Of a stretch of 19,728 bases of DNA, positions 545 to 18,375 are shown in pieces. Position numbers and translations under genes: made by a program. The DNA lies in NCBI RefSeq assembly GCF_003334255.1, contig NZ_QOWU01000070.1. One strand, given 5' to 3'. The notes beneath the pieces were generated by a model that was not told the origin of the DNA, did no database searches, and saw only the letters and a program-made list of their open reading frames with translations. Every line of letters begins with the position of its first letter. Positions within the stretch are counted from its first letter, which is position 1. Origin of the DNA: Escherichia coli. Lineage in GTDB: Bacteria > Pseudomonadota > Gammaproteobacteria > Enterobacterales > Enterobacteriaceae.

Positions 545-3256
545 CTACATTCCAGGTGATGGTGGCGTCCACTCATTATCCTGAACTGGAGTATAAGATG
601 TGTCATTCCCCCCGGATATGCTTTTCTGTTGCCTGATATATTCGTGGTAGTACTGTTCACTACGCTGACGATGTAAATCCACATCCGGGCGGCTGATTAC
701 AAAGTGTCCATTTCCGGTTATTCCAGCTGCATTATGCCAGGCCACCATTTCCGCAAATACATCATTAAACTGTTGATATGAGCCTTCCGGTTCAAAACCC
801 ATTCCAGGCTCACGATCAAACAATACAGGAGCAATCAGATTCAGCTTATCCACCAGTTCATTTCTGTCCTGATGATGGTAGAACACCACACGGTCCCCAT
901 AATCCACACAGACTAACTCGCCATTCCTCCGATCACGAAAACGCACACTGCCATCTTTCTGCAGACGGGCTTCGAGAACGCCAGTGTCTTCATAAAGTGG
1001 AGTTCCTCCCGGTTCACAGATAATCACGCAGCGGTCGGCATTCGTTGTTCGTCGCTTGTCTTTGCGACGATCACGATAATCCCAGCCACGTAACTGTGAT
1101 ACTGCAGCTCTGTCTCCCTGTACCGCCTGTTGCTCCACCCACTGCCGGTAGGACAAAGGATACCACTTACCCTCCGCAATCAGTGACAACCGCTCTTCCT
1201 TCACACTCTCCTTCAGCCTGATCAGCGCCTGCATACGCTGCACTTCCGCAATATGGTAATGCAGCTTACGCAATTGTGGATCCCGGAACTGCACGCGGAT
1301 ATACGCCTTGCGCCGACGGCAGGCAGCATGAATTTCCCGTAACCGTTCTCCGTAACGTAAGTCGGGTTTACGCCAGTGCTCCTTCCATGCAAGATAACGC
1401 GCGCGCAAATCTTCCCGCGCAGCTGCACGGGCTTCACGGCGTTCACGACGCAGTACAGGATCGCGCCGGAAGCCGGGCTCCACTTCATCGCTGGCAGCAA
1501 GTTCCGGATTGTAGCGACATTCAGGCTTCACCCGTTCAAATATATCTGCACCTGCGATCTCAAATGGCCCTGCCTGCGGCTCAGCCCTGGATAATGTCAA
1601 ATCCGGGTGGATACTGCTGGCCTTCACTGGTGTCAGCTCATGATTAAACGCATCCACAATCACAAGACCATGATGCTGTTTCTGCAACATAAGCCCTTTA
1701 CGCGCAAACATCTCATGGCACGCCTGCCAGCTGAAATTCCCGCCCGCGATCATATCTTCAATCAACGACTCACACTGAACAGTCGTGTACCCCCACAGAC
1801 TTTCCTTATCAGAAAACAGTTCGCGCTTTATTGCTCCCTGTGGACCTGTCCCCATCCGCATACGATACCATTCGTAATCACTGACAGCCCGGGTACCGGT
1901 ACTGTGCCCCCGGAATCGTTCTCCGGGGACGACCTGGGTAAAAATATCCTTCGGTACAGGCTGCCATCCGCCTTCCTGATCCTGCATGTAATCCAGCGTC
2001 ATTAACGGCCACACACTGTCTGCACGTACTGGTGTCTGTTGTTTATCAAATCCATCATGCAGTACCAGATGCCCGTGCTGGATCCCCATCCATAATCCAG
2101 CCTTTGCCAGAGTTCTGTGCACATCCAGGCAACTTTCCAGCTCACCATTTCTCGCCATTTCCGGTAAGCGTTCGGCAAAATGACGGCAGGCGTACTGTTT
2201 CAGACTCTCCGTTTCTGCCACTTTTTCCGGCCGGATATCAACGTTTATCGCTTCCGGATCATAACGACCGGGTGTCCCCACCTGACTGAAAATATCTGTC
2301 GGTACAGGCTGATATTCTCCCAGTTTCCGCCCCAGTCTTTCAGCCGTCCATGACGGGCCGAACGAACTGAGCACAACACCTTCCCGCGATCTGTCCCAGC
2401 CATCCTTCACCACCAGTTCTCCCTCCTGCATCGTGATATACAGACCATCACGGGCCAGCCGTTTATGCAAAGACAACCAGTCCTGGGCGGGTTCTTCACG
2501 CAGCCCGGCAATCGACATCTGCGCAATATATTCCCTGAAGGTCTGCTTTTTCCCGCGTCGCCAGGCATTACGGCGCTCACGTACCAGCGCTGTTTTACGC
2601 ACAATACGGTTGCCCGGTGCATGCACAAAACACCCGTTATCCGGTGCAAATCCGTGCTTAAGTTCAAGTTCACGGCATGCACGACTGAGTTTTTCCTTGC
2701 TCCACGGAAGGCAATTGATATAGCCGGTTTCAGGATGAACACGATTCACTGCAACATGTACATGCAGGTTATCGGTGTCTGTATGAACGGCAGCTACATA
2801 CTGATGTTTTGAAAGTTCAAGGGATTTCAGTGTGTGACGTACGCAGTCAAAAAGCTGCTCAGGACGCGGGCTTTCATGCGCAGGCCAGGAAAGAATGTAG
2901 TGAAAAACAGGGTCTGTATCATCTTTGGAAAAATGAGCAAGGTCTGCTGCTTTCTGCATTTCTTCAGCCGCAGATTCAAGAGACAAACAGTTATGAAAGC
3001 AGGTCACACCATAGAAATTCACCCACTGACTGCCGTCTTCCATTACATCAATCAGGGATACAAATTTTTCGTTACGCAGGCGTGTGGCATAGTCAACAAG
3101 CCGTCTGAAGCGGTTACGGTGCGGGACCTCACCTTTCATTTCCGGGTCTGGTTTGAGTTCATCATCCTGCACATCATCCCGCACAGACGTGTACGCAATC
3201 AGGTCTTCAAAGGAAGACCTTCCGTCACGTCTTTTGGGCGGAATGATAGCATTCAT
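545..3256 (-). CDS. nikB: MOBP-family conjugative relaxase (NikB-like), 903 aa
   Basis: Relaxase histidine motif HTDTDNLHVHVAVNRVHPETG (HxDxxxxHxH type). Size and N-terminus (MNAIIPPKRRDGRSSFEDL) fit my memory of IncI1 R64 NikB (~900 aa). Lies directly downstream of a nikA-like gene and oriT. Confidence 0.88.
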   Translation of the reverse strand: MNAIIPPKRRDGRSSFEDLIAYTSVRDDVQDDELKPDPEMKGEVPHRNRFRRLVDYATRLRNEKFVSLIDVMEDGSQWVNFYGVTCFHNCLSLESAAEEMQKAADLAHFSKDDTDPVFHYILSWPAHESPRPEQLFDCVRHTLKSLELSKHQYVAAVHTDTDNLHVHVAVNRVHPETGYINCLPWSKEKLSRACRELELKHGFAPDNGCFVHAPGNRIVRKTALVRERRNAWRRGKKQTFREYIAQMSIAGLREEPAQDWLSLHKRLARDGLYITMQEGELVVKDGWDRSREGVVLSSFGPSWTAERLGRKLGEYQPVPTDIFSQVGTPGRYDPEAINVDIRPEKVAETESLKQYACRHFAERLPEMARNGELESCLDVHRTLAKAGLWMGIQHGHLVLHDGFDKQQTPVRADSVWPLMTLDYMQDQEGGWQPVPKDIFTQVVPGERFRGHSTGTRAVSDYEWYRMRMGTGPQGAIKRELFSDKESLWGYTTVQCESLIEDMIAGGNFSWQACHEMFARKGLMLQKQHHGLVIVDAFNHELTPVKASSIHPDLTLSRAEPQAGPFEIAGADIFERVKPECRYNPELAASDEVEPGFRRDPVLRRERREARAAAREDLRARYLAWKEHWRKPDLRYGERLREIHAACRRRKAYIRVQFRDPQLRKLHYHIAEVQRMQALIRLKESVKEERLSLIAEGKWYPLSYRQWVEQQAVQGDRAAVSQLRGWDYRDRRKDKRRTTNADRCVIICEPGGTPLYEDTGVLEARLQKDGSVRFRDRRNGELVCVDYGDRVVFYHHQDRNELVDKLNLIAPVLFDREPGMGFEPEGSYQQFNDVFAEMVAWHNAAGITGNGHFVISRPDVDLHRQRSEQYYHEYIRQQKSISGGNDTSYTPVQDNEWTPPSPGM

Positions 3257-3700: not shown

Positions 3701-3832
3701 TCAGGCCATTATAGCCTGTTATTTTTGTGCATCATAGTCTTATGCAGACGGCAGAGGCAGGGCGCAGCCCTGCCAGGAGGCAGTTTTTGGTGATAAAATC
3801 AGGCTTCAACATGAAACGGAGAGAAAGTGCCA

Positions 3833-4168
3833 ATGGCTTCTAAAAAATTTTACTCAGATGATGACATCCAGCTGGCAAAAGCTGCTTTATCGGAATTGCC
3901 GGACCTCACCGCTCAACGGAAAACATTGCGTGATTTTCTTGATGCCATTCGTGATGACATCATTGTCCTGGTAAGGACAAAGGGTTATACACTGACAGAT
4001 GTTCGTGACACGCTCAAAAATGCAGGGTATGAAGTAGGAGAGAAAGCACTTCGTGACATTATTCGGGAAGCAGAATCGAAAAAACCATCCCGCCGTTCTT
4101 CCTCTAAAACAGCACCTAAAAAGACAGATTCAGGCAGGAAAGATGGCATCGATATGAACAACAATTGA
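3833..4168 (+). CDS. Hypothetical small basic protein (possible DNA-binding), 111 aa
   Basis: ORF with ATG at 3833 preceded by GGAGAGAAA; C-terminal lysine/arginine/serine-rich tail; stop directly followed by the perfect palindrome GATGTGAC ga GTCACATC (4167-4185). Function not recognised. Confidence 0.6.
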   Translation: MASKKFYSDDDIQLAKAALSELPDLTAQRKTLRDFLDAIRDDIIVLVRTKGYTLTDVRDTLKNAGYEVGEKALRDIIREAESKKPSRRSSSKTAPKKTDSGRKDGIDMNNN

Positions 4169-4212
4169 TGTGACGATGTCACATCGTGTTCTGAGATTAT
4201 GATGATTACAGA

Positions 4213-4249
4213 AAAAAAAGCCCCGGCATAAATACCAGGGCTTTTCTGT
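4213..4249 (-). terminator. Rho-independent terminator for the minus-strand leading-region transcript
   Basis: On the minus strand: stem AAAGCCCTGG / CCGGGGCTTT with one mismatch, followed by a run of 8 T; located just after the stop of the 4254-5102 gene. Confidence 0.7.
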
Positions 4250-4253
4250 TTGA

Positions 4254-5102
4254 TCAGACTCGTGGCGGCAATGCACCAGGATAATGACGTGCAATAATAT
4301 CATTCAGTTTTTCAACAAGGTCAGGACACTTAAAGACAATATGTACGGTCCCTTTCTGGTAGCCACGCACCGTAAAATATTCCCCTTCAAACAACTCACC
4401 GATATTGTCGCCGTTCCCGAGATATTCACCATACTGCGCCCCGATGCTGTTCCTGAAGTCAGGAACGTTGCGTCCCTCCAGCAGATAAAACGGACGTACC
4501 AGGTCATCCAGTGCCTCCCGTCCGCTGCAGTCCAGCGTCACACGCCCGTTACTCCAGCGGTACAGCAGGTTTTCAATAATGATTTTCTTGCCCAGACGGC
4601 AGGGATTATTGGTTCTGTAATCCCATGACAATTTCCGGTAGACATCAATCAGTCCCTGTTCAAATGTCTGCATCTTGCTGGCATTCAGATGGCGAAAAGT
4701 TGCCAGTACATTGTCCAGGGTGATTTCAGGACAGGTGTCGCTCATCAGCTGGCTGTTCCACTCATCACGCTGGCATGAACTCATGAAGGTGTACATCCCC
4801 GTATCCGCCATCAGGCGGTCCCAGATTTTACGGTCGGCAAGACGGGTGATATTCTTTTTTGCTTCTTCCGGTTTATCCATGCATCGAACGGAGTCAGTCA
4901 CGCAGTCTTCAAACCCGTAGAGAAAAATGTCACCAGAAGCATCGAGCAGAATCCTGCGTGCTGTCGCCAGGCATTCCATCGCCTGCATGAACAGTGCAAT
5001 ACCTTCGTTACGCTGCGCGATAATGCGGTCGATGGCCACAGACGGAATAATATCTGTCGTGCCGGCAGTATTCAGGTCAGCAGTGGGTAAAGTCTGATTC
5101 AT
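4254..5102 (-). CDS. Hypothetical protein, first gene of the leading region (possibly DUF4942-like), 282 aa
   Basis: Long ORF; ATG at 5100-5102 with SD GAGGAG 8 nt upstream (the track start is a GTG one codon earlier). No methyltransferase, HExxH or nuclease motif seen by eye. The family assignment is from memory and weak. Confidence 0.75.
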   Translation of the reverse strand: MNQTLPTADLNTAGTTDIIPSVAIDRIIAQRNEGIALFMQAMECLATARRILLDASGDIFLYGFEDCVTDSVRCMDKPEEAKKNITRLADRKIWDRLMADTGMYTFMSSCQRDEWNSQLMSDTCPEITLDNVLATFRHLNASKMQTFEQGLIDVYRKLSWDYRTNNPCRLGKKIIIENLLYRWSNGRVTLDCSGREALDDLVRPFYLLEGRNVPDFRNSIGAQYGEYLGNGDNIGELFEGEYFTVRGYQKGTVHIVFKCPDLVEKLNDIIARHYPGALPPRV

Positions 5103-10835: not shown

Positions 10836-11114
10836 CGTCTGACCGGTGGTGGTCAGCGCCGCCCGGATACGCGGGCATCTTCTGCCACTTGGTAACAGAT
10901 GCTTCGTACTGCATTGCGCACTGCATCAAGAACTGCCCTGATTTCGTCTTCGGTCAGCCATTCTCCGGCATACGGGAAAAACACCTGTGTTCCGTCTGCC
11001 GGAAGTACCGGCAGCGACTGCCACTGACTGCCGGACAGTACCAGTTCCGCCCCGGTTCCGGTCAGTTTCTGAATGGCGGAGGCCAGGAGCGGCGGCAGTA
11101 CGCCGCCGTGACGG

Positions 11115-11756
11115 TTGATAAGTAACGTCCGGAAAAACTTCAGCGTCATTCTTGAGCGTACGGTACGCGAACTCAACGGCGAGTCCTGCATATCCCTGGA
11201 AGAAGCACCACCGGCAAAACAACAGATTGTCTGTAGTCGCAGTTTTGGTGAACGAATCACAGACAAAGATGCCATGCACCAGGCTGTTGTTCAGTATGCA
11301 GAGCGGGCCGCAGAGAAACTACGTGGGGAGCGTCAGTATTGCCGGCAGGTGACGACATTTGTACGGACATCCCCCTTTGCAGTAAAAGAACCCTGTTACA
11401 GCAATGCCGCTGTGGAAAAGCTTTCATTGCCCACACAGGACAGCCGGGACATTATTGCCGCCGCATGCAGAGCCTTAAACCATGTCTGGCGTGAAGGGTA
11501 CCGCTATATGAAGGCAGGAGTCATGCTGGCTGATTTCACTCCATCGGGTATAGCGCAGCCGGGATTATTTGATGAAATCCAGCCCCGTAAAAACAGTGAA
11601 AAGTTAATGAAAACACTCGATGAACTGAACCAGTCGGGAAAAGGGAAAGTGTGGTTTGCGGGGCGAGGAACCGCCCCTGAATGGCAAATGAAACAGGAAA
11701 TGCTATCGCCTTCGTATACAACACAATGGACTGAGATCCCCATTGCTTCATTCTGA
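11115..11756 (+). pseudogene. impB: impB/umuC/mucB-family error-prone polymerase gene, 3' half only
   Basis: [13 protein letters not shown] ... [11 protein letters not shown] ... TTFVRTSPFA ... PTQDSRDIIAAA ... YMKAGVMLADF ... LFDE ... WQMKQEMLSPSYTT aligns to the C-terminal ~210 residues of MucB/UmuC as I recall them. An in-frame TGA at 11109-11111 and non-homologous sequence upstream show the N-terminal half, and any impA/impC, are missing. Confidence 0.85.
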
Positions 11757-11760
11757 TATA

Positions 11761-12153
11761 TCAGAATAATTTTTTCATTTTAAGACGCACATCATTCATT
11801 GCCTTCTGCACCGAATCCGTAGCAGAAGGAGGCATTTTTTCAGCAGATTGCGAAGCACCGAGTTCAGTCAACACAGCTCTGATATCGGCCTGAGAAGGCT
11901 TCCATCCAGTCGTCTGACTGAGTAAGGTTACAACCTGATCTGCTGAAAACTCCTCGCTCAAAATGGCAGTCAGCAATACAGGCAGGCGAGGATCAAGTTG
12001 GTGTAACGCCATTCCAGAAATAAATGCATTCCGGAACAGCTCACCACGCTCAGAACGCGGAACGGACTCTATCGCTTCCAAAGTTTGAAAGTCTGCAGCT
12101 TTTTCCGGATGCAGATAAAGTGTGTATTTTTTCCTTTTCCGTTCATCGTCCAC
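11761..12153 (-). CDS. stbB: Partition adaptor StbB/ParR-like protein, about 131 aa
   Basis: Immediately downstream of the actin-type ATPase gene; GTG at 12151-12153 with SD AAAGAGGAG 7 nt upstream, just after the stbA stop (the track ATG at 12189 would overlap stbA by 32 nt). Assignment rests mainly on position. Confidence 0.55.
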   Translation of the reverse strand: MDDERKRKKYTLYLHPEKAADFQTLEAIESVPRSERGELFRNAFISGMALHQLDPRLPVLLTAILSEEFSADQVVTLLSQTTGWKPSQADIRAVLTELGASQSAEKMPPSATDSVQKAMNDVRLKMKKLF

Positions 12154-12157
12154 AATA

Positions 12158-13129
12158 TTACTCCTCTTTGAAAGCCGCGATAGCTTCAACCAGTGCTGTC
12201 TGTGGCGACTCCATCATCACTACTTTTTGCCCAAGATGGTGCCATGCCGTTTTTATCGAATCATAGATCAACGGGGCCCCACCACCGACAACATAAACAC
12301 GATTCACATGATGGAAATCACCGAGCTCATTGACTACTTGCTCCCCCAGACTGGCAATAGCCCCCTCAATGGTATTAAGGACCAGATCAGTTTTTGTTTC
12401 GTCATTTATAACCTGCCGAACAAAGTCCGGGTCATTACGACGTTTAATCAATTCATCTGCAACGAGGAAACTGGTATCACTGGATGCCATGCGCAATGCA
12501 CTCATTGCAGCTTTCGTAACTGAAGACACACCAATGCCAGAATTACCATGAATGGCACTTACAGAGTCAAATTGACCAACGATAACACCAACATCAAGCG
12601 TAGTGCCGCCAATATCAACTACCAGCGATTTTTCGAACTGACCAACTTTATCCATGACCAGACGAGAAAACACAGCTGGCAATGATTCAGGCATCACATC
12701 AACGTGTTCAATGGTGAAAACATCGCCTTTATTAAGACGAATCGGCCTCATTAAATTCTCAATTTTACGCTGAATGTTGAGTTCATTTTTTTGACACTCT
12801 TTCGTGTAGAACTCACTGATAGGCAAAGTCACAGTCAATGATACAGGCTGAGGCGCTAATCCACTATTCAGTAAAGCGTGATGCACAGCTAACAGGTTAA
12901 CATCCGTATATTGATACTCAATATGAGTCGTAAGAATAGATTGGTTACTAACTTCATCATACGTGTATTTTTTACCATCCAGTTCATAGTTAAATGTCTG
13001 GCGAATCCCTAACCCGTCAACCTTCCATCCATGACGAAATGAGTTTTGCGACAACGACTTACAGATTTTCCCATTGTCATTCCATGCCAACTTGATTGTT
13101 GTTGAACCATCATCGCAGTATACGTTCAT
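12158..13129 (-). CDS. stbA: Actin-like plasmid segregation ATPase (ParM/StbA family), 323 aa
   Basis: N-terminus MNVYCDDGSTTIKLAW parallels R1 ParM (MLVFIDDGSTNIKLQW), with phosphate motifs DIGGTTLD and VVGGGA; SD AAGGGG upstream of the ATG. Confidence 0.85.
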   Translation of the reverse strand: MNVYCDDGSTTIKLAWNDNGKICKSLSQNSFRHGWKVDGLGIRQTFNYELDGKKYTYDEVSNQSILTTHIEYQYTDVNLLAVHHALLNSGLAPQPVSLTVTLPISEFYTKECQKNELNIQRKIENLMRPIRLNKGDVFTIEHVDVMPESLPAVFSRLVMDKVGQFEKSLVVDIGGTTLDVGVIVGQFDSVSAIHGNSGIGVSSVTKAAMSALRMASSDTSFLVADELIKRRNDPDFVRQVINDETKTDLVLNTIEGAIASLGEQVVNELGDFHHVNRVYVVGGGAPLIYDSIKTAWHHLGQKVVMMESPQTALVEAIAAFKEE

Positions 13130-13357
13130 CTATAGCCCCTTAAATACTCAATCTGAGTAAATCACTGTTTCTGGTTGCAAGGTAATACTCAATTTGAGCA
13201 CCATCATAGTTATGAAATCACAAAACACAAGTATTATTTATTACATCACATGACTCACTTCATATTTCATACTTCATAAATGTGAACGCATATTGACACC
13301 TCAGGTTACCGTGTCAAAATATCATCATACTTCACACATCACATTTATGAGGTTGCA
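13130..13357. promoter_or_regulatory. AT-rich divergent promoter / centromere-like repeat region between stbA and parA
   Basis: Direct repeats AATACTCAATCTGAGTA (13143-13159) and AATACTCAATTTGAGCA (13183-13199), plus repeated ACTTCATA / ACATCACAT motifs; lies between divergently transcribed partition operons. Confidence 0.55.
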
Positions 13358-14002
13358 ATGATTACTGTAGTTGGTGGGAACAAAGGTGGTTCAGGGAAAA
13401 CTACCATTGCATCAAACCTGGCTATTGCTCTCGCAAATAAAGGAAGGGAAGTCTGCCTGTTAAACGGAGATCTACAACGAACAGCCGCAAAACATCATGC
13501 GGAACGAGAAGCTGCAGGACTGTTACCAGCAATAACCCTTGTTGAGAAATTTGATAATCTGACACAAACACTACAGGCTCTGAATGAAAAGTTCGATGAT
13601 GTAATAGTGGATGTCGCAGGAAGAAACTCAAAGGAATTCATAACGAGTGGAGTTGTCGCACATCAAATAATTGCGCCACTACAGTGTTCTCAACCAGATC
13701 TGGATACTCTTACAGAACTAGAACAACAGATAGACGCAATGCGTAACCTTAACCCGGAACTTAAGGTTTATTGTTTACAAAGTATGGCAACAACCAATCC
13801 GGTTTTGAGGGGAAATGAGAGAAAAGAATTCCTTGAATATCTTGAAGAATTCCCAACAATTCAAGTCCTGGATTCAGTTATTTGTTTCAGAAAAGTCTAT
13901 CGCGATTGCATGAGCAACGGCACCGGTGTAGTAGAAACGAACAATACAGCAGCCAAAGCAGAAATTGAACATTTAATGAATGAGGTATTTGGCCCATGGT
14001 GA
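13358..14002 (+). CDS. ParA-family (small, ParF-like) partition ATPase, 214 aa
   Basis: Deviant Walker A VVGGNKGGSGKTT near the N-terminus; SD GAGG upstream of the ATG. Confidence 0.85.
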   Translation: MITVVGGNKGGSGKTTIASNLAIALANKGREVCLLNGDLQRTAAKHHAEREAAGLLPAITLVEKFDNLTQTLQALNEKFDDVIVDVAGRNSKEFITSGVVAHQIIAPLQCSQPDLDTLTELEQQIDAMRNLNPELKVYCLQSMATTNPVLRGNERKEFLEYLEEFPTIQVLDSVICFRKVYRDCMSNGTGVVETNNTAAKAEIEHLMNEVFGPW

Positions 14003-14271
14003 AAAAACCCAGCCAGCAAGCATTAAACAGAGCTGCAGTTACGGTAGAACAAGCAGAGGCTCTGGCTCAGCGCCTTGCGGATAAACCATACGGCGCGCCG
14101 GAAAAAACCGAACCAGAAAAACAATGTCGGACGACAATCTCTCTTGGTGAAAGCATGCTTGTCACAATAGAAGATCTGGCATTGAGGAATAAACGCAATG
14201 GTAAAGATCCAAAAAATGTAAGTGCCATCGTCAGAGTAGCCCTTGAGCAATACTTAAAAACACTAACGTAA
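13996..14271 (+). CDS. Small partner protein of ParA (possible ParG/RHH-type centromere-binding protein), 91 aa
   Basis: Start overlaps the parA stop (ATGGTGA), indicating translational coupling; small, charged. Function inferred from position. Confidence 0.5.
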   Translation: MVKKPSQQALNRAAVTVEQAEALAQRLADKPYGAPEKTEPEKQCRTTISLGESMLVTIEDLALRNKRNGKDPKNVSAIVRVALEQYLKTLT

Positions 14272-14340
14272 TAATCAAGAAGTTATTACTTATGAAATCA
14301 CACTTGTGAATTCATACTGTTTAAGCACCCTTGCATACAA

Positions 14341-14371
14341 GAGATCACATATTGCAGTGGTCTCTTTTATT
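14341..14371 (+). terminator. Rho-independent terminator after the parA operon
   Basis: Stem GAGATCAC / GTGGTCTC (one G-U pair), 8-nt loop, followed by TTTTATT. Confidence 0.6.
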
Positions 14372-14401
14372 ACAGAATAATTCATAATTATGATTTGTGA
14401 A

Positions 14402-15184
14402 TTATGCGTGTCTGTTTTTCAGCATTGTGACCGCATCGGACTCAGGCATCAAAAACTGCACCCGGTGCCGTGCAGCCACATCCAGTGCAAACACCTTCGT
14501 GTAGACCTCCGTTGAGCTGATGGACTTATGCCCCATCAGGCTCTGCAGGACCTTCAGCGGTATACCGGCATACAGCATGTGCATCGCATAGGAATGGCGG
14601 AACGTATGTGGCGTGACCGGGACAGAGAACGTCACACCATCAGCGGCAGCGGCGGCAACCGCCTCCCCAATCCAGGTCCTGACCGTTCTGTCAGTCACTT
14701 CCCAGATCCGCGCTTTCTCTGTCCTGCCTGTTCGTTTATTACGCCGTTCCATGGGGATTTTCAGTGTTGCCACCATCGTCTGCAGCTGGCTGACGTACCA
14801 GGAGTCGGAGAGCGGAACCAGCCGGTGAGTCTGCTGACCGGCGGGCATTCTTCCTGCCGTCCTGGCGGCTTTTTCTGTCCGCTGCTTCAGAGTGGCCAGT
14901 TGCACAAACGGATACGGGGGCGCAAGCGAAAAATCCCCCCGCGTCAGCGCCAGTGCTTCATTAATGCGCGCACCGGTGTTCCACAGTGTGGCCAGCAGCA
15001 TCTTGCGGCGCAGATCCGGGACGTAATGGAGCAGGGCGCTCACTTCAGGGGCCAGCAGGTATTTTGGCAGTTCATCATGAACCATCGACATCTGGCGGAG
15101 TGCCAGCGCTGCCGGATAATCGATGGCAACAGGAAGCTGAGCAGCATCCCGGGCATGGTGGATCGGTGCCGGCAGGTGCTGCAT
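14402..15184 (-). CDS. Tyrosine site-specific recombinase (XerD/ResD-like), 260 aa
   Basis: C-terminal catalytic signature HTFRHSYAMHMLYAGIPLKVLQSLMGHKSISSTEVYTKV and upstream TLWNTGARINEAL (R...H..R..Y). The ATG at 15182-15184 sits 1 nt after the upstream gene stop; the track ORF begins earlier at 15337. Confidence 0.88.
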   Translation of the reverse strand: MQHLPAPIHHARDAAQLPVAIDYPAALALRQMSMVHDELPKYLLAPEVSALLHYVPDLRRKMLLATLWNTGARINEALALTRGDFSLAPPYPFVQLATLKQRTEKAARTAGRMPAGQQTHRLVPLSDSWYVSQLQTMVATLKIPMERRNKRTGRTEKARIWEVTDRTVRTWIGEAVAAAAADGVTFSVPVTPHTFRHSYAMHMLYAGIPLKVLQSLMGHKSISSTEVYTKVFALDVAARHRVQFLMPESDAVTMLKNRHA

Positions 15185-15185
15185 A

Positions 15186-15599
15186 TCAGTGTTCACTCCA
15201 CGGGGAAACGTCGGGCAGGTTTTCCACAACACGGTACTTTCCCGGATAACGGAGCTGGTTACCGCCATGCGTCCGGACGGTGACAACAAAACCCCCTCCC
15301 TGGTTGTTTTCGGGGAGCAGGCGATCGCACTGCTCACTCAGCATGTGGATCACAAACGGCGCATCGCTGCCGTCTTCAAATACCAGTTCCAGCGCATCGC
15401 GGCCATTCAGCGTTCCCTTACTGATGATGACGTACTCAGCCCCCCGCATCTCCCTGAGTAAATGTTTTGCCGCATCCGGGACAAGCAGCCTGGCTGCGCC
15501 GGCATTCCAGCTGAGGTAGACATATCCGGCCTGCGCCTGTACAGACTGCCAGTAATCCGTTCTGGCGACAGCCTGACCTTCATTCTCAATAAAAAACAT
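15186..15599 (-). CDS. Hypothetical protein encoded directly upstream of, and co-transcribed with, the recombinase, 137 aa
   Basis: ATG at 15597-15599 with strong SD AAGGAG 7 nt upstream; stop adjacent to the recombinase start (TGATATG). Confidence 0.7.
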   Translation of the reverse strand: MFFIENEGQAVARTDYWQSVQAQAGYVYLSWNAGAARLLVPDAAKHLLREMRGAEYVIISKGTLNGRDALELVFEDGSDAPFVIHMLSEQCDRLLPENNQGGGFVVTVRTHGGNQLRYPGKYRVVENLPDVSPWSEH

Positions 15600-17497: not shown

Positions 17498-17845
17498 ATG
17501 AAACTGGATATATCTGTAAAGTATTTACTGAAGAGCCTGATACCAAGCCTCATTATTCTTACAGTTTTTTATCTGGGATGGAAAGATAACCAGGAAAATG
17601 CAAGAATGTTTTATGCGTTCATCGGATGCATTATCAGTGCCATTACTTTTCCTTTTTCAATGAGGATAATACAGAAAATGGTAATAAGGTTTACAGGGAA
17701 AGAATTCTGGCAAAAAGACTTCTTTACAAATCCAGTTGGCGGAAGCTTAACTGCTATATTTGAATTATTCTGTTTCGTTATATCAGTTCCTGTGGTTGCC
17801 ATTTACTTAATTTTTATATTCTGCAAAGCCCTTTCAGGAAAATGA
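17498..17845 (+). CDS. Colicin immunity protein of the small E1/Ia/Ib type, 115 aa (likely colicin Ib-type)
   Basis: Strong SD AAAGGAG; small hydrophobic protein with three predicted membrane segments; convergent with and 18 bp from the end of a colicin pore-domain ORF, the classical pore-former colicin-immunity arrangement. Confidence 0.65.
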   Translation: MKLDISVKYLLKSLIPSLIILTVFYLGWKDNQENARMFYAFIGCIISAITFPFSMRIIQKMVIRFTGKEFWQKDFFTNPVGGSLTAIFELFCFVISVPVVAIYLIFIFCKALSGK

Positions 17846-17862
17846 AAGGGCATCATTATGTG

Positions 17863-18375
17863 TCAGATACCAATAAGTTTATTGACCTGCTCAATAAACT
17901 TATCATTAACAAGCGCACTCACAGCAGCCATAATAATTGCAAAACCCAGAATACCTACAGGGGTTCCCAGCATGACGGAAAACGTCCATGCTGTAACTGC
18001 TGAAGCAGCTCTTCCTGCTGCCAGTGATTCAAGTTTTACAAAAAATGGACGCCAGTTGTCCGTTTTTACAGCCTTTTGTAACTCCACAGCAACATCATAA
18101 CGATCAATAACTTTTCCGGTAAAACCAAATGCCTTACTGAACAGCTTAAAATTCTCCGCCATATGGACCTGATTAATAGCTTCCAGGGCTTTAGAAATGG
18201 CCATGCGATCTTGTATGCTATATTTCTTGTTCAGATTATTACGGAATTTATCAAAAGCGTTCAGTGCATCATCCACACTCTTAATTTGTTTCCCTTGAGA
18301 TACAGAAGCCAGCTCCTTAGAAAGTTCGGATGCTTGTTTACCCGAGTAGGCAGCCTGGCGGCTGCGGCTTGTCAT
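17863..18375 (-). pseudogene. Pore-forming colicin, C-terminal channel domain only (170 aa); N-terminal translocation and receptor domains absent
   Basis: TDNWRPFFVKLESLAAGRAASAVTAWTFSVMLGTPVGILGFAIIMAAVSALVNDKFIEQVNKLIGI matches the hydrophobic helical hairpin and C-terminal LIGI ending of channel-forming colicins as I recall them. An in-frame TAA three codons upstream of the first ATG shows the rest of the gene is missing. Confidence 0.7.

Follow-up and report, generated by a model that had tools for sequence, protein, structure and literature searches.

The par2 system of plasmid pB171 is a model for ParA gradients, and pB171 ParR has provided a structure of the type II partition complex. 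Both belong to a double par locus that was first described on this Escherichia coli virulence plasmid; the literature on it includes Ebersbach & Gerdes, 2001 and Ringgaard et al., 2007. In published work, pB171 par2 behaves as a type Ib ParABS system, and constructs comprising parC1-parA-parB-parC2 stabilize mini-R1 and space ParB-GFP foci evenly. PMC7602700 places repeat arrays upstream and downstream of the pB171 par operon, with the upstream array regulating transcription, and states that operon-flanking arrays are present in pB171, pSM19035, and pESBL.

Here we analyze a 19,728-nucleotide stretch of E. coli DNA (the window; contig NZ_QOWU01000070.1 of assembly GCF_003334255.1). Positions 11761–14403 very probably constitute a copy of the pB171-type double par locus, carried on an IncK2/Z (I-complex) plasmid backbone, and with high confidence they encode a pair of independent segregation systems, par1 (type II) and par2 (type Ib). 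Such a locus is already known and ordinary. It is a model system of bacterial DNA segregation, and this copy adds nothing to the biology.

Genes of the two partition operons

The ORF map shows two divergent operons, with parR (stbB) and parM (stbA) on the minus strand and parA and parB on the plus strand, separated by a 228-nt spacer. Annotations of identical public plasmids agree with this map, and the full order is umuDC-parR-parM-parC1-parA-parB-integrase. The preliminary description had likewise proposed two divergent partition modules of different type; the four ORFs lie at or near the coordinates it gave, and their families are confirmed.

The par1 gene parM (12158–13129, minus strand) encodes a 323-residue actin-like segregation ATPase. 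It matches the Pfam StbA_N domain (E = 2.5e-64) and the ParM C-terminal domain (E = 6.4e-44), its residues 2–295 match the structures of R1 ParM (1mwk and others; E = 2.8e-76), and the exact sequence carries the public name “plasmid segregation protein ParM.” These matches place it in the ParM/StbA family of actin-fold ATPases, one of the components that characterize type II (ParMRC) partition. The other, a ParR adaptor, is encoded by parR (11761–12153, minus strand; 130 residues), which lies directly downstream of parM after a 4-nt gap from the parM stop. The product matches Pfam Plasmid_stab_B (E = 1.4e-29) and a PHROG partition protein (E = 1.1e-47), and is identical at 128 of 130 positions to pB171 ParR, deposited as “StbB protein” (PDB 2JD3; E = 1.6e-79), leaving two substitutions. 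According to PMC5016525, full-length pB171 ParR is the protein crystallized by Moller-Jensen, 2007. An earlier placement of the parR start at 12189 has to be shifted to a GTG at 12153, as in 2JD3 and in identical plasmids, which annotate parR with limits 11761–12153; with this start, parR does not overlap parM.

The par2 ATPase gene parA (13358–14002, plus strand) encodes a protein of 214 residues with a deviant Walker A motif, KGGSGKT, at residues 9–15. Type Ib ATPases are deviant Walker A proteins of ∼200–220 residues without an N-terminal HTH domain, and ParA has these features. Its best NCBIfam match, ParA_partition (NF041546), extends over the full length (117.2 bits, E = 6.7e-34), although the score is below the curated equivalog cut-off of 180 bits and the protein thus falls outside that equivalog. 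It also matches the PHROG “ParA-like partition protein” (E = 5.7e-40). The exact sequence bears the UniRef RepID Q0H055, the accession given for “pB171 ParA” in a 2026 paper (PMC13245405).

The second par2 gene, parB (13996–14271, plus strand), overlaps the parA stop by 7 nt and encodes the predicted centromere-binding protein, of 91 residues. ParB probably adopts a ribbon-helix-helix (RHH) fold. It matches Pfam RHH_1 weakly over residues 45–88 (E = 0.0038), a single-sequence AF2 model of low confidence (mean pLDDT 57) has a strand-helix-helix arrangement at residues 47–90, and its public names include CopG family and ribbon-helix-helix protein; pB171 ParB has been classed as an RHH-ParB (PMC13245405). 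A PDB sequence search with ParB returned chance matches only and no solved relative, the PHROGs hold no model for ParB, and NCBIfam holds none for ParR or ParB. The protein is one substitution away from its commonest variant.

Repeats of the shared spacer and the downstream site

The spacer between the operons (parC1, 13130–13357) had been characterized as AT-rich and repeat-rich, and both properties are borne out by a GC content of 0.34 and by repeats far above chance. Two classes of repeat are present at the locus: a pair of 16-nt palindromic boxes adjoining parM, and ∼20 copies of (A/T)TCA(C/T)A in a 7-nt register. The boxes read ATACTCAAT[C/T]TGAG and occupy the region 15–71 nt upstream of the parM start, 41 nt apart. 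Box 1 (13144–13159) is ATACTCAATCTGAGTA, with palindromic arms TACTCA/TGAGTA, and box 2 (13185–13200) is ATACTCAATTTGAGCA.

The heptads of parC1 form two blocks around a promoter-like site for parAB (13293–13320, plus strand), which consists of TTGACA, a 16-nt gap, and CAAAAT, with a TG before the −10 hexamer; with 10 of 12 positions agreeing with the consensus, it is a putative promoter by consensus match. Block A (13203–13286), upstream of the −35 hexamer, comprises 12 consecutive heptads in a single register, eight of which match (A/T)TCA(C/T)A or its complement and four of which are degenerate. Block B (13324–13351), which follows the −10 hexamer and precedes the parA ribosome-binding site, comprises four heptads (ATCATAC, TTCACAC, ATCACAT, and TTATGAG). 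Over the whole of parC1, the motif TCAYA/TRTGA occurs 12 times, with eight neighboring pairs exactly 7 nt apart; the count and the spacing were each reached by 0 of 2000 dinucleotide shuffles. A consensus scan of the minus strand detected no consensus promoter for parMR. The hexamer TATGAT at 13203–13208 (minus strand), picked by eye as a parMR −10 element, has a poor −35 partner and is not claimed.

A second cis site with parC1-type repeats lies downstream of parB (parC2, 14272–14403). It contains eight phased copies of TCAYA, against 0.8–1.7 expected, in blocks at 14290–14317, 14344–14350, and 14381–14401, and none of 2000 shuffles matched its five neighboring pairs at exactly 7 nt. The integrase gene converges on parC2, and its stop codon directly adjoins the last repeat. 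The site extends beyond the end at 14371 assigned previously. Arrays of short repeats are therefore found on both sides of the parAB operon, as in type Ib systems. The suggestion that the spacer may hold both centromeres holds in part: it contains cis sites for both systems and presumably their promoters, but parC2 lies outside it, downstream of parB.

A Lelliottia plasmid preserves the parC1 repeats, the boxes, and the −35 hexamer and diverges in the intervening sequence. The 28 nt of block B are 100% identical to their Lelliottia counterpart, compared with 72% overall identity; the TTGAC of the promoter-like site is also retained there, and the ParR-type boxes are conserved in both Lelliottia and Leclercia. 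In relatives, block A is retained, and C and T replace each other at its degenerate position. Within parC2, a natural 7-nt indel corresponds to exactly one unit, and most relatives carry one unit more than the copy described here.

The two classes of repeat can be putatively assigned to the two modules, since each travels with its module where that module stands alone. A Kosakonia plasmid with parAB adjoining repE, and without parMR, carries 12 heptads upstream and six downstream but lacks boxes; in a Yersinia plasmid that has parMR and no parAB, three boxes lie upstream of parMR and there is a single heptad motif. We therefore regard the boxes as candidate binding sites belonging to parMR, and the heptads as candidate sites belonging to parAB.

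A third box-like sequence lies inside the parM coding sequence (12914–12929). The double loci of Lelliottia and Leclercia retain it, but the stand-alone Yersinia parM does not have it. We consider it quite improbable that this sequence is a working ParR site or that gain or loss of single 7-nt units in parC2 tunes centromere strength or partition incompatibility. If so, the complex through which par1 achieves partition or repression would reach into parM by way of the internal box, and the changes in parC2 would act between co-resident plasmids bearing the same cassette.

Proposed mechanism and alternative readings

By analogy with the pB171 and R1 literature on binding, filament and gradient mechanics, repression, and stabilization, the locus would operate as follows. 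In par1, ParR would bind the palindromic ATACTCAAT-N-TGAG boxes adjoining parM; the ParR-DNA complexes on two sister plasmids would capture ParM-ATP filaments, which would push the sisters apart through insertional growth. In par2, ParB dimers would bind cooperatively to the 7-nt-phased (A/T)TCA(C/T)A repeats of parC1 and parC2, and the resulting complexes would stimulate nucleoid-bound ParA-ATP, such that plasmids would follow a ParA gradient and become evenly spaced over the nucleoid. Autorepression by both adaptors is also expected from the layout, in which ParB-type repeats flank and follow the parAB promoter-like site and ParR-type boxes immediately precede parM. The ParR-type boxes are bordered by the first ParB-type heptads, an adjacency that would fit cross-repression of par1 by ParB. 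Such cross-repression has been published for pB171.

A reading in which both modules are present and only par2 stabilizes the plasmid, with par1 either a conserved passenger or chiefly a partner in regulation, is unlikely, though the most probable of the alternatives. Hierarchies between co-resident partition systems have been reported, for example for SCP1 and R27, Ebersbach & Gerdes, 2001 reportedly found par2 to be the stronger stabilizer, and the related I-complex plasmid pMS7163B is maintained with just one type Ib parAB, located in the same slot. Against this, neither parM nor parR is truncated, and their products are nearly identical to characterized proteins; the ParR-type boxes persist where overall identity has fallen to 72%; and the pair has been kept together across ∼1000 plasmids of several replicon types, which argues for selection on both modules. 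The pMS7163B parAB genes, essential by TraDIS, were themselves considered as the same system as par2 and rejected; the ParA proteins are 33% identical, and pMS7163B has no parMR.

The preliminary description had regarded dual systems as unusual and as a possible mark of cointegrate history. At least 982 PLSDB plasmids, however, hold at least 80% of the locus, and in a 2026 survey 971 plasmids combine type-I RHH-ParB with type II systems. That the dual arrangement is a scar of recent cointegration of two plasmids in this lineage is very improbable. In its favor, the occurrence of each module alone elsewhere (parAB by repE in Kosakonia, parMR in Yersinia) indicates separate origins at some point, and the GC content of the par block (0.33–0.48) is below that of its flanks (0.52–0.62). 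The same order from umuDC to integrase nevertheless persists at ∼72% nucleotide identity on Lelliottia and Leclercia plasmids, from which it follows that the fusion is old; the locus also occurs at 98–99% identity on IncFIB, IncFIA/FIB/FIC, IncFIC, and IncK2/Z plasmids of Salmonella, Klebsiella, and E. coli. These comparisons indicate that the parMR-parAB fusion moves as one cassette. Separately, ∼500 records match only the last 116 nt of the locus; the guess that these were IncI1 plasmids carrying a different par cassette was dropped, since the single record inspected proved to be an IncFIB plasmid of ColV type that shares only a related integrase.

The reading of parA and parB as something other than partition genes, with a MipZ-like role in division-site positioning, a VirC1-like role in conjugation, or a BcsQ-like role, is effectively refuted: although RefSeq names close relatives (98–99% DNA identity across the locus) “division plane positioning ATPase MipZ” and weak Pfam matches to MipZ and VirC1 exist, the matches to VirC1, BcsQ, MinD, and MipZ are confined to the P-loop or far below cut-off (NCBIfam VirC1, 25.5 bits against 313; BcsQ, 24 against 158; MinD, 32–35 against 202–213; Pfam MipZ, residues 2–52 and 64–126 only), ParA_partition is by far the best match, over the full length, the sequence bears the accession of the experimentally studied pB171 ParA, and the small RHH-type partner and flanking repeat arrays are those of type Ib systems. 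Homology to a conjugation or cellulose-associated ATPase, which had been named in advance as grounds for rejecting a second partition pair, is not borne out by these scores.

The cassette is poorly annotated in public records. ParA often goes under MipZ or “AAA family ATPase,” ParB under “hypothetical protein,” and neither parC1 nor parC2 is ever indicated. It occurs in E. coli, Salmonella, and Klebsiella on ∼1000 sequenced plasmids, among them the pESI megaplasmid and resistance and virulence plasmids of IncK2/IncF type. Exact positions of the cis sites may be of use for annotation and for work on incompatibility or plasmid curing, though the practical value is modest.

Comparison with known partition systems

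Walker-type and actin-type systems also coexist on R27 (IncHI1) and on Shigella pINV. In those plasmids the pairing is of type Ia, with a large HTH ParB, and type II, and the two systems are not known to share a single centromere and promoter spacer.

The par2 module resembles TP228 ParFGH, pSM19035 delta/omega, and the ParAB systems of IncI1 pESBL/R64, all of which have a small Walker ATPase lacking an N-terminal DNA-binding domain and an adaptor of ∼90–100 residues. Similarity between TP228 ParF and the ParA described here is low (E about 1e-7); ParF/ParA proteins of the TP228 type are among its nearest solved relatives. The repeat of pESBL is the octamer GATAACAA, whereas here it is a 7-nt-phased TCAYA.

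The par1 module shares with the type II prototype, ParMRC of plasmid R1, an actin-like ParM, a small ParR encoded downstream, and a centromere upstream of parM. In R1, parC surrounds the promoter with ten 11-bp iterons; the present locus instead has two 16-nt palindromic boxes and the look-alike inside parM. ParMRC of R1 stands alone, while the par1 spacer is common to a second system.

The closest correspondence is with the double par locus of pB171, which has the same gene order, orientation, and protein sizes, a shared spacer of ∼200 nt, and a second downstream site. Judging from the proteins and from descriptions in citing papers, identity with pB171 parC1 and parC2 probably extends to the DNA level. 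The backbones differ, that of pB171 being F-like and the present one belonging to the IncK2/Z I-complex.

Two divergent partition modules

The window contains two partition modules of differing type in divergent orientation, as the preliminary description had correctly read them. The first, par1, is a type II module on the minus strand, comprising parM/stbA (12158–13129, 323 aa) and, after a 4-nt gap, parR/stbB (130 aa), which starts with a GTG at 12153. ParM contains StbA_N (E 2.5e-64) and the ParM C-terminal domain (E 6.4e-44; both Pfam), and structures of R1 ParM align to it (E 2.8e-76). The longest stbB open reading frame in the ORF listing would begin at 12189; judged by sequence comparison, the 130-aa form is the one matching the solved protein and public annotations. 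It contains Pfam Plasmid_stab_B (E 1.4e-29), and 128 of its 130 residues are identical to the "StbB protein" of PDB 2JD3, which we take to be the ParR entry of Moller-Jensen et al. (2007).

The second module, par2, is of type Ib and lies on the plus strand, where parA (13358–14002, 214 aa) and parB (13996–14271, 91 aa) overlap by 7 nt. ParA belongs to the small deviant Walker A ATPases; its best family matches are ParA_partition (117 bits, under the 180-bit equivalog cut-off) and, among the PHROGs, "ParA-like partition protein" (E 5.7e-40). ParB, named CopG or ribbon-helix-helix in public sources, has a weak RHH_1 match (E 0.0038), and a low-confidence AlphaFold model suggests a strand-helix-helix topology for residues 47–90. 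The preliminary description had named a non-partition ParA-like ATPase as the alternative for this pair; a VirC1-, BcsQ- or MinD-like identity was rejected, as these matches cover the P-loop only and fall far below cut-offs.

Repeat classes and their probable adaptors

The spacer between the modules, parC1 (13130–13357), has a GC content of 34%, and the stretch after parB 29%. Near parM, parC1 carries two 16-nt ParR-type boxes, at 13144 and 13185 and thus 41 nt apart, of the form ATACTCAAT[C/T]TGAG(T/C)A with palindromic arms (TACTCA/TGAGTA). The second repeat class is a heptad motif, (A/T)TCA(C/T)A, which occurs in either orientation and keeps strictly to a 7-nt register: block A (13203–13286) is a run of 12 heptads, 4 of them degenerate, and block B (13324–13351) has 4. 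Strict copies number 12 in parC1 and 8 downstream of parB (14290–14401, within parC2, 14272–14403), with 8 and 5 neighbors, respectively, at exactly 7 nt. Base composition predicts about one copy per region and dinucleotide shuffles give means of 3.4 (parC1) and 1.7 (parC2); none of 2000 shuffles attained the observed copy counts or exact-7-nt neighbor numbers. Between the blocks lies a promoter-like site (TTGACA-16-CAAAAT, 13293–13320), such that a parAB promoter here would be bracketed by ParB bound to the heptads.

The order umuDC-parR-parM-spacer-parA-parB-integrase is shared by plasmids of Lelliottia amnigena and Leclercia adecarboxylata at ∼72% DNA identity (Lelliottia proteins: ParM 82%, ParA 79%, ParB 71%, ParR 57%). 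Their spacers keep the boxes, heptads, and −35 hexamer but not the sequence in between; Lelliottia has all 28 nt of block B unchanged (100% identity), and substitutions in close relatives hit the degenerate C/T position of the heptad motif. A Kosakonia plasmid has par2-type parAB beside repE and no parMR, with 12 heptads upstream, 6 downstream, and no boxes. Conversely, a Yersinia massiliensis plasmid has par1-type parMR and no parAB; three boxes lie upstream of its parM, and the heptad motif occurs once, which is chance level. Boxes accompany parMR and heptads accompany parAB, a pattern that supports ParR as the adaptor for the former and ParB as that for the latter.

Two further features of the repeats were observed. 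Relative to most relatives, parC2 here lacks exactly one 7-nt unit (AAATCAC) at 14378/14379. The unit is also absent from a few plasmids identical to the window copy and is present in the pESI, pKPN-7c3, and pUMNK88_K88 copies and most 98%–99% relatives, where the match is 2758 nt long, versus 2751 nt without it. A third ParR-box look-alike, ATACTCAATATGAGTC, lies inside parM (12914–12929; minus-strand codons T-H-I-E-Y), ∼200 nt into the coding sequence and oriented like the two parC1 boxes. It is kept in the Lelliottia (position 3783) and Leclercia (3217) double loci and is not in the stand-alone Yersinia parM; coding constraint alone could account for its conservation.

By analogy with the pB171 and R1 literature, ParR on its boxes would capture the ends of ParM-ATP filaments, whose growth by insertion would push sister plasmids apart. 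ParB dimers would coat the parC1 and parC2 arrays and stimulate nucleoid-bound ParA-ATP, with plasmids moving up the resulting ParA gradient to become evenly spaced. From where their sites fall with respect to the start codons and the promoter-like site, both adaptors are predicted to repress their own operons. ParR box 2 is adjacent to the first heptads, an arrangement that fits the cross-repression of par1 by ParB reportedly seen in pB171.

Distribution and neighbors of the cassette

Megablast of a 2.75-kb query against PLSDB matched 1554 records, 982 of them over at least 80% of the query and mostly at 95%–99% identity, from E. coli, Salmonella, Klebsiella, Shigella, and Enterobacter; a more sensitive search gave 1033. 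The ∼500 remaining megablast records match only the last 116 nt, the integrase end, at ∼90% identity; one example is a ColV-type IncFIB plasmid, where the integrase lies beside colicin M genes. An independent survey counted 971 PLSDB plasmids that combine a type-I RHH-ParB with a type II system (PMC13245405). Dual systems, which the preliminary description had called unusual, are thus present as this cassette on about a thousand sequenced plasmids. Backbones include IncK2/Z plasmids (that of the window), the IncFIB pESI megaplasmid of Salmonella Infantis, an IncFIA/FIB/FIC Klebsiella plasmid, and the IncFIC plasmid pUMNK88_K88, with the cassette usually flanked by impCAB/umuDC on one side and a tyrosine recombinase gene on the other.

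Each module is found on its own elsewhere, so the two did arise separately. Judging from the Lelliottia and Leclercia loci, the parMR-parAB fusion is older than their ∼28% DNA divergence. It carries no information on whether this individual plasmid arose by cointegration, as had been suggested. The par block (11800–14400) has 33%–48% GC and its flanks (11000–11600 and 14400–15400) 51%–62%, which fits a cassette of foreign origin.

Directly beside parR is only the 3′ half of impB/umuC (11127–11756, plus strand; residues 215–423 of 423); the window lacks the 5′ half of this gene as well as impC and impA, so the SOS-mutagenesis operon impCAB, whole in relatives such as pESI and pUMNK88_K88, is truncated here. 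Just 3′ of impB, the I-complex plasmid pMS7163B carries another type Ib parAB (4052–4977; ParA 33% identical to ours, partner 100 aa) and no parMR; TraDIS showed that this pair is needed for plasmid maintenance (PMC10286972). Partition cassettes thus seem to be exchanged at the site following impB. On the minus strand (14402–15184 and 15186–15599), a tyrosine recombinase of 260 aa converges on parB; termed "site-specific integrase" and matching a PHROG integrase (E 2.6e-34), it is a constant neighbor of the cassette and probably serves multimer resolution. Annotation transferred from the identical plasmid NZ_CP116070 places a colicin E1-family immunity gene at 17498–17845 (plus strand), adjoined by a 170-aa "colicin-like pore-forming protein" frame (17863–18375, minus strand), possibly a truncated colicin. 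A 903-aa relaxase frame occupies 545–3256 (minus strand).

Relation to the pB171 double par locus

Public records (e.g., NZ_OW849859, NC_017639, and NZ_CP116070) annotate the locus inconsistently: ParA is a "division plane positioning ATPase MipZ" or "AAA family ATPase," ParB a "hypothetical protein" or "CopG family transcriptional regulator," and parC1 and parC2 are unannotated. The UniRef representative of the exact ParA sequence is Q0H055, used as "pB171 ParA" in a study that places pB171 ParB among the RHH-ParBs and pB171 ParM/ParR in type II (PMC13245405). Full-length pB171 ParR is the protein crystallized by Moller-Jensen et al. (2007; PMC5016525). Papers on pB171 par2 describe the layout parC1-parA-parB-parC2, stabilization of mini-R1, ParB-GFP foci evenly spaced over the nucleoid, and type Ib ParABS behavior whose dynamics are near-oscillatory. 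Repeat arrays lie upstream and downstream of the pB171 par operon, the upstream array regulating transcription (PMC7602700). Points beyond annotation are small, namely the missing parC2 unit, the intragenic look-alike kept in double loci, and the poor public annotation; on protein identity and layout, we identify this locus as the double par locus of pB171, which has been known since 2001.
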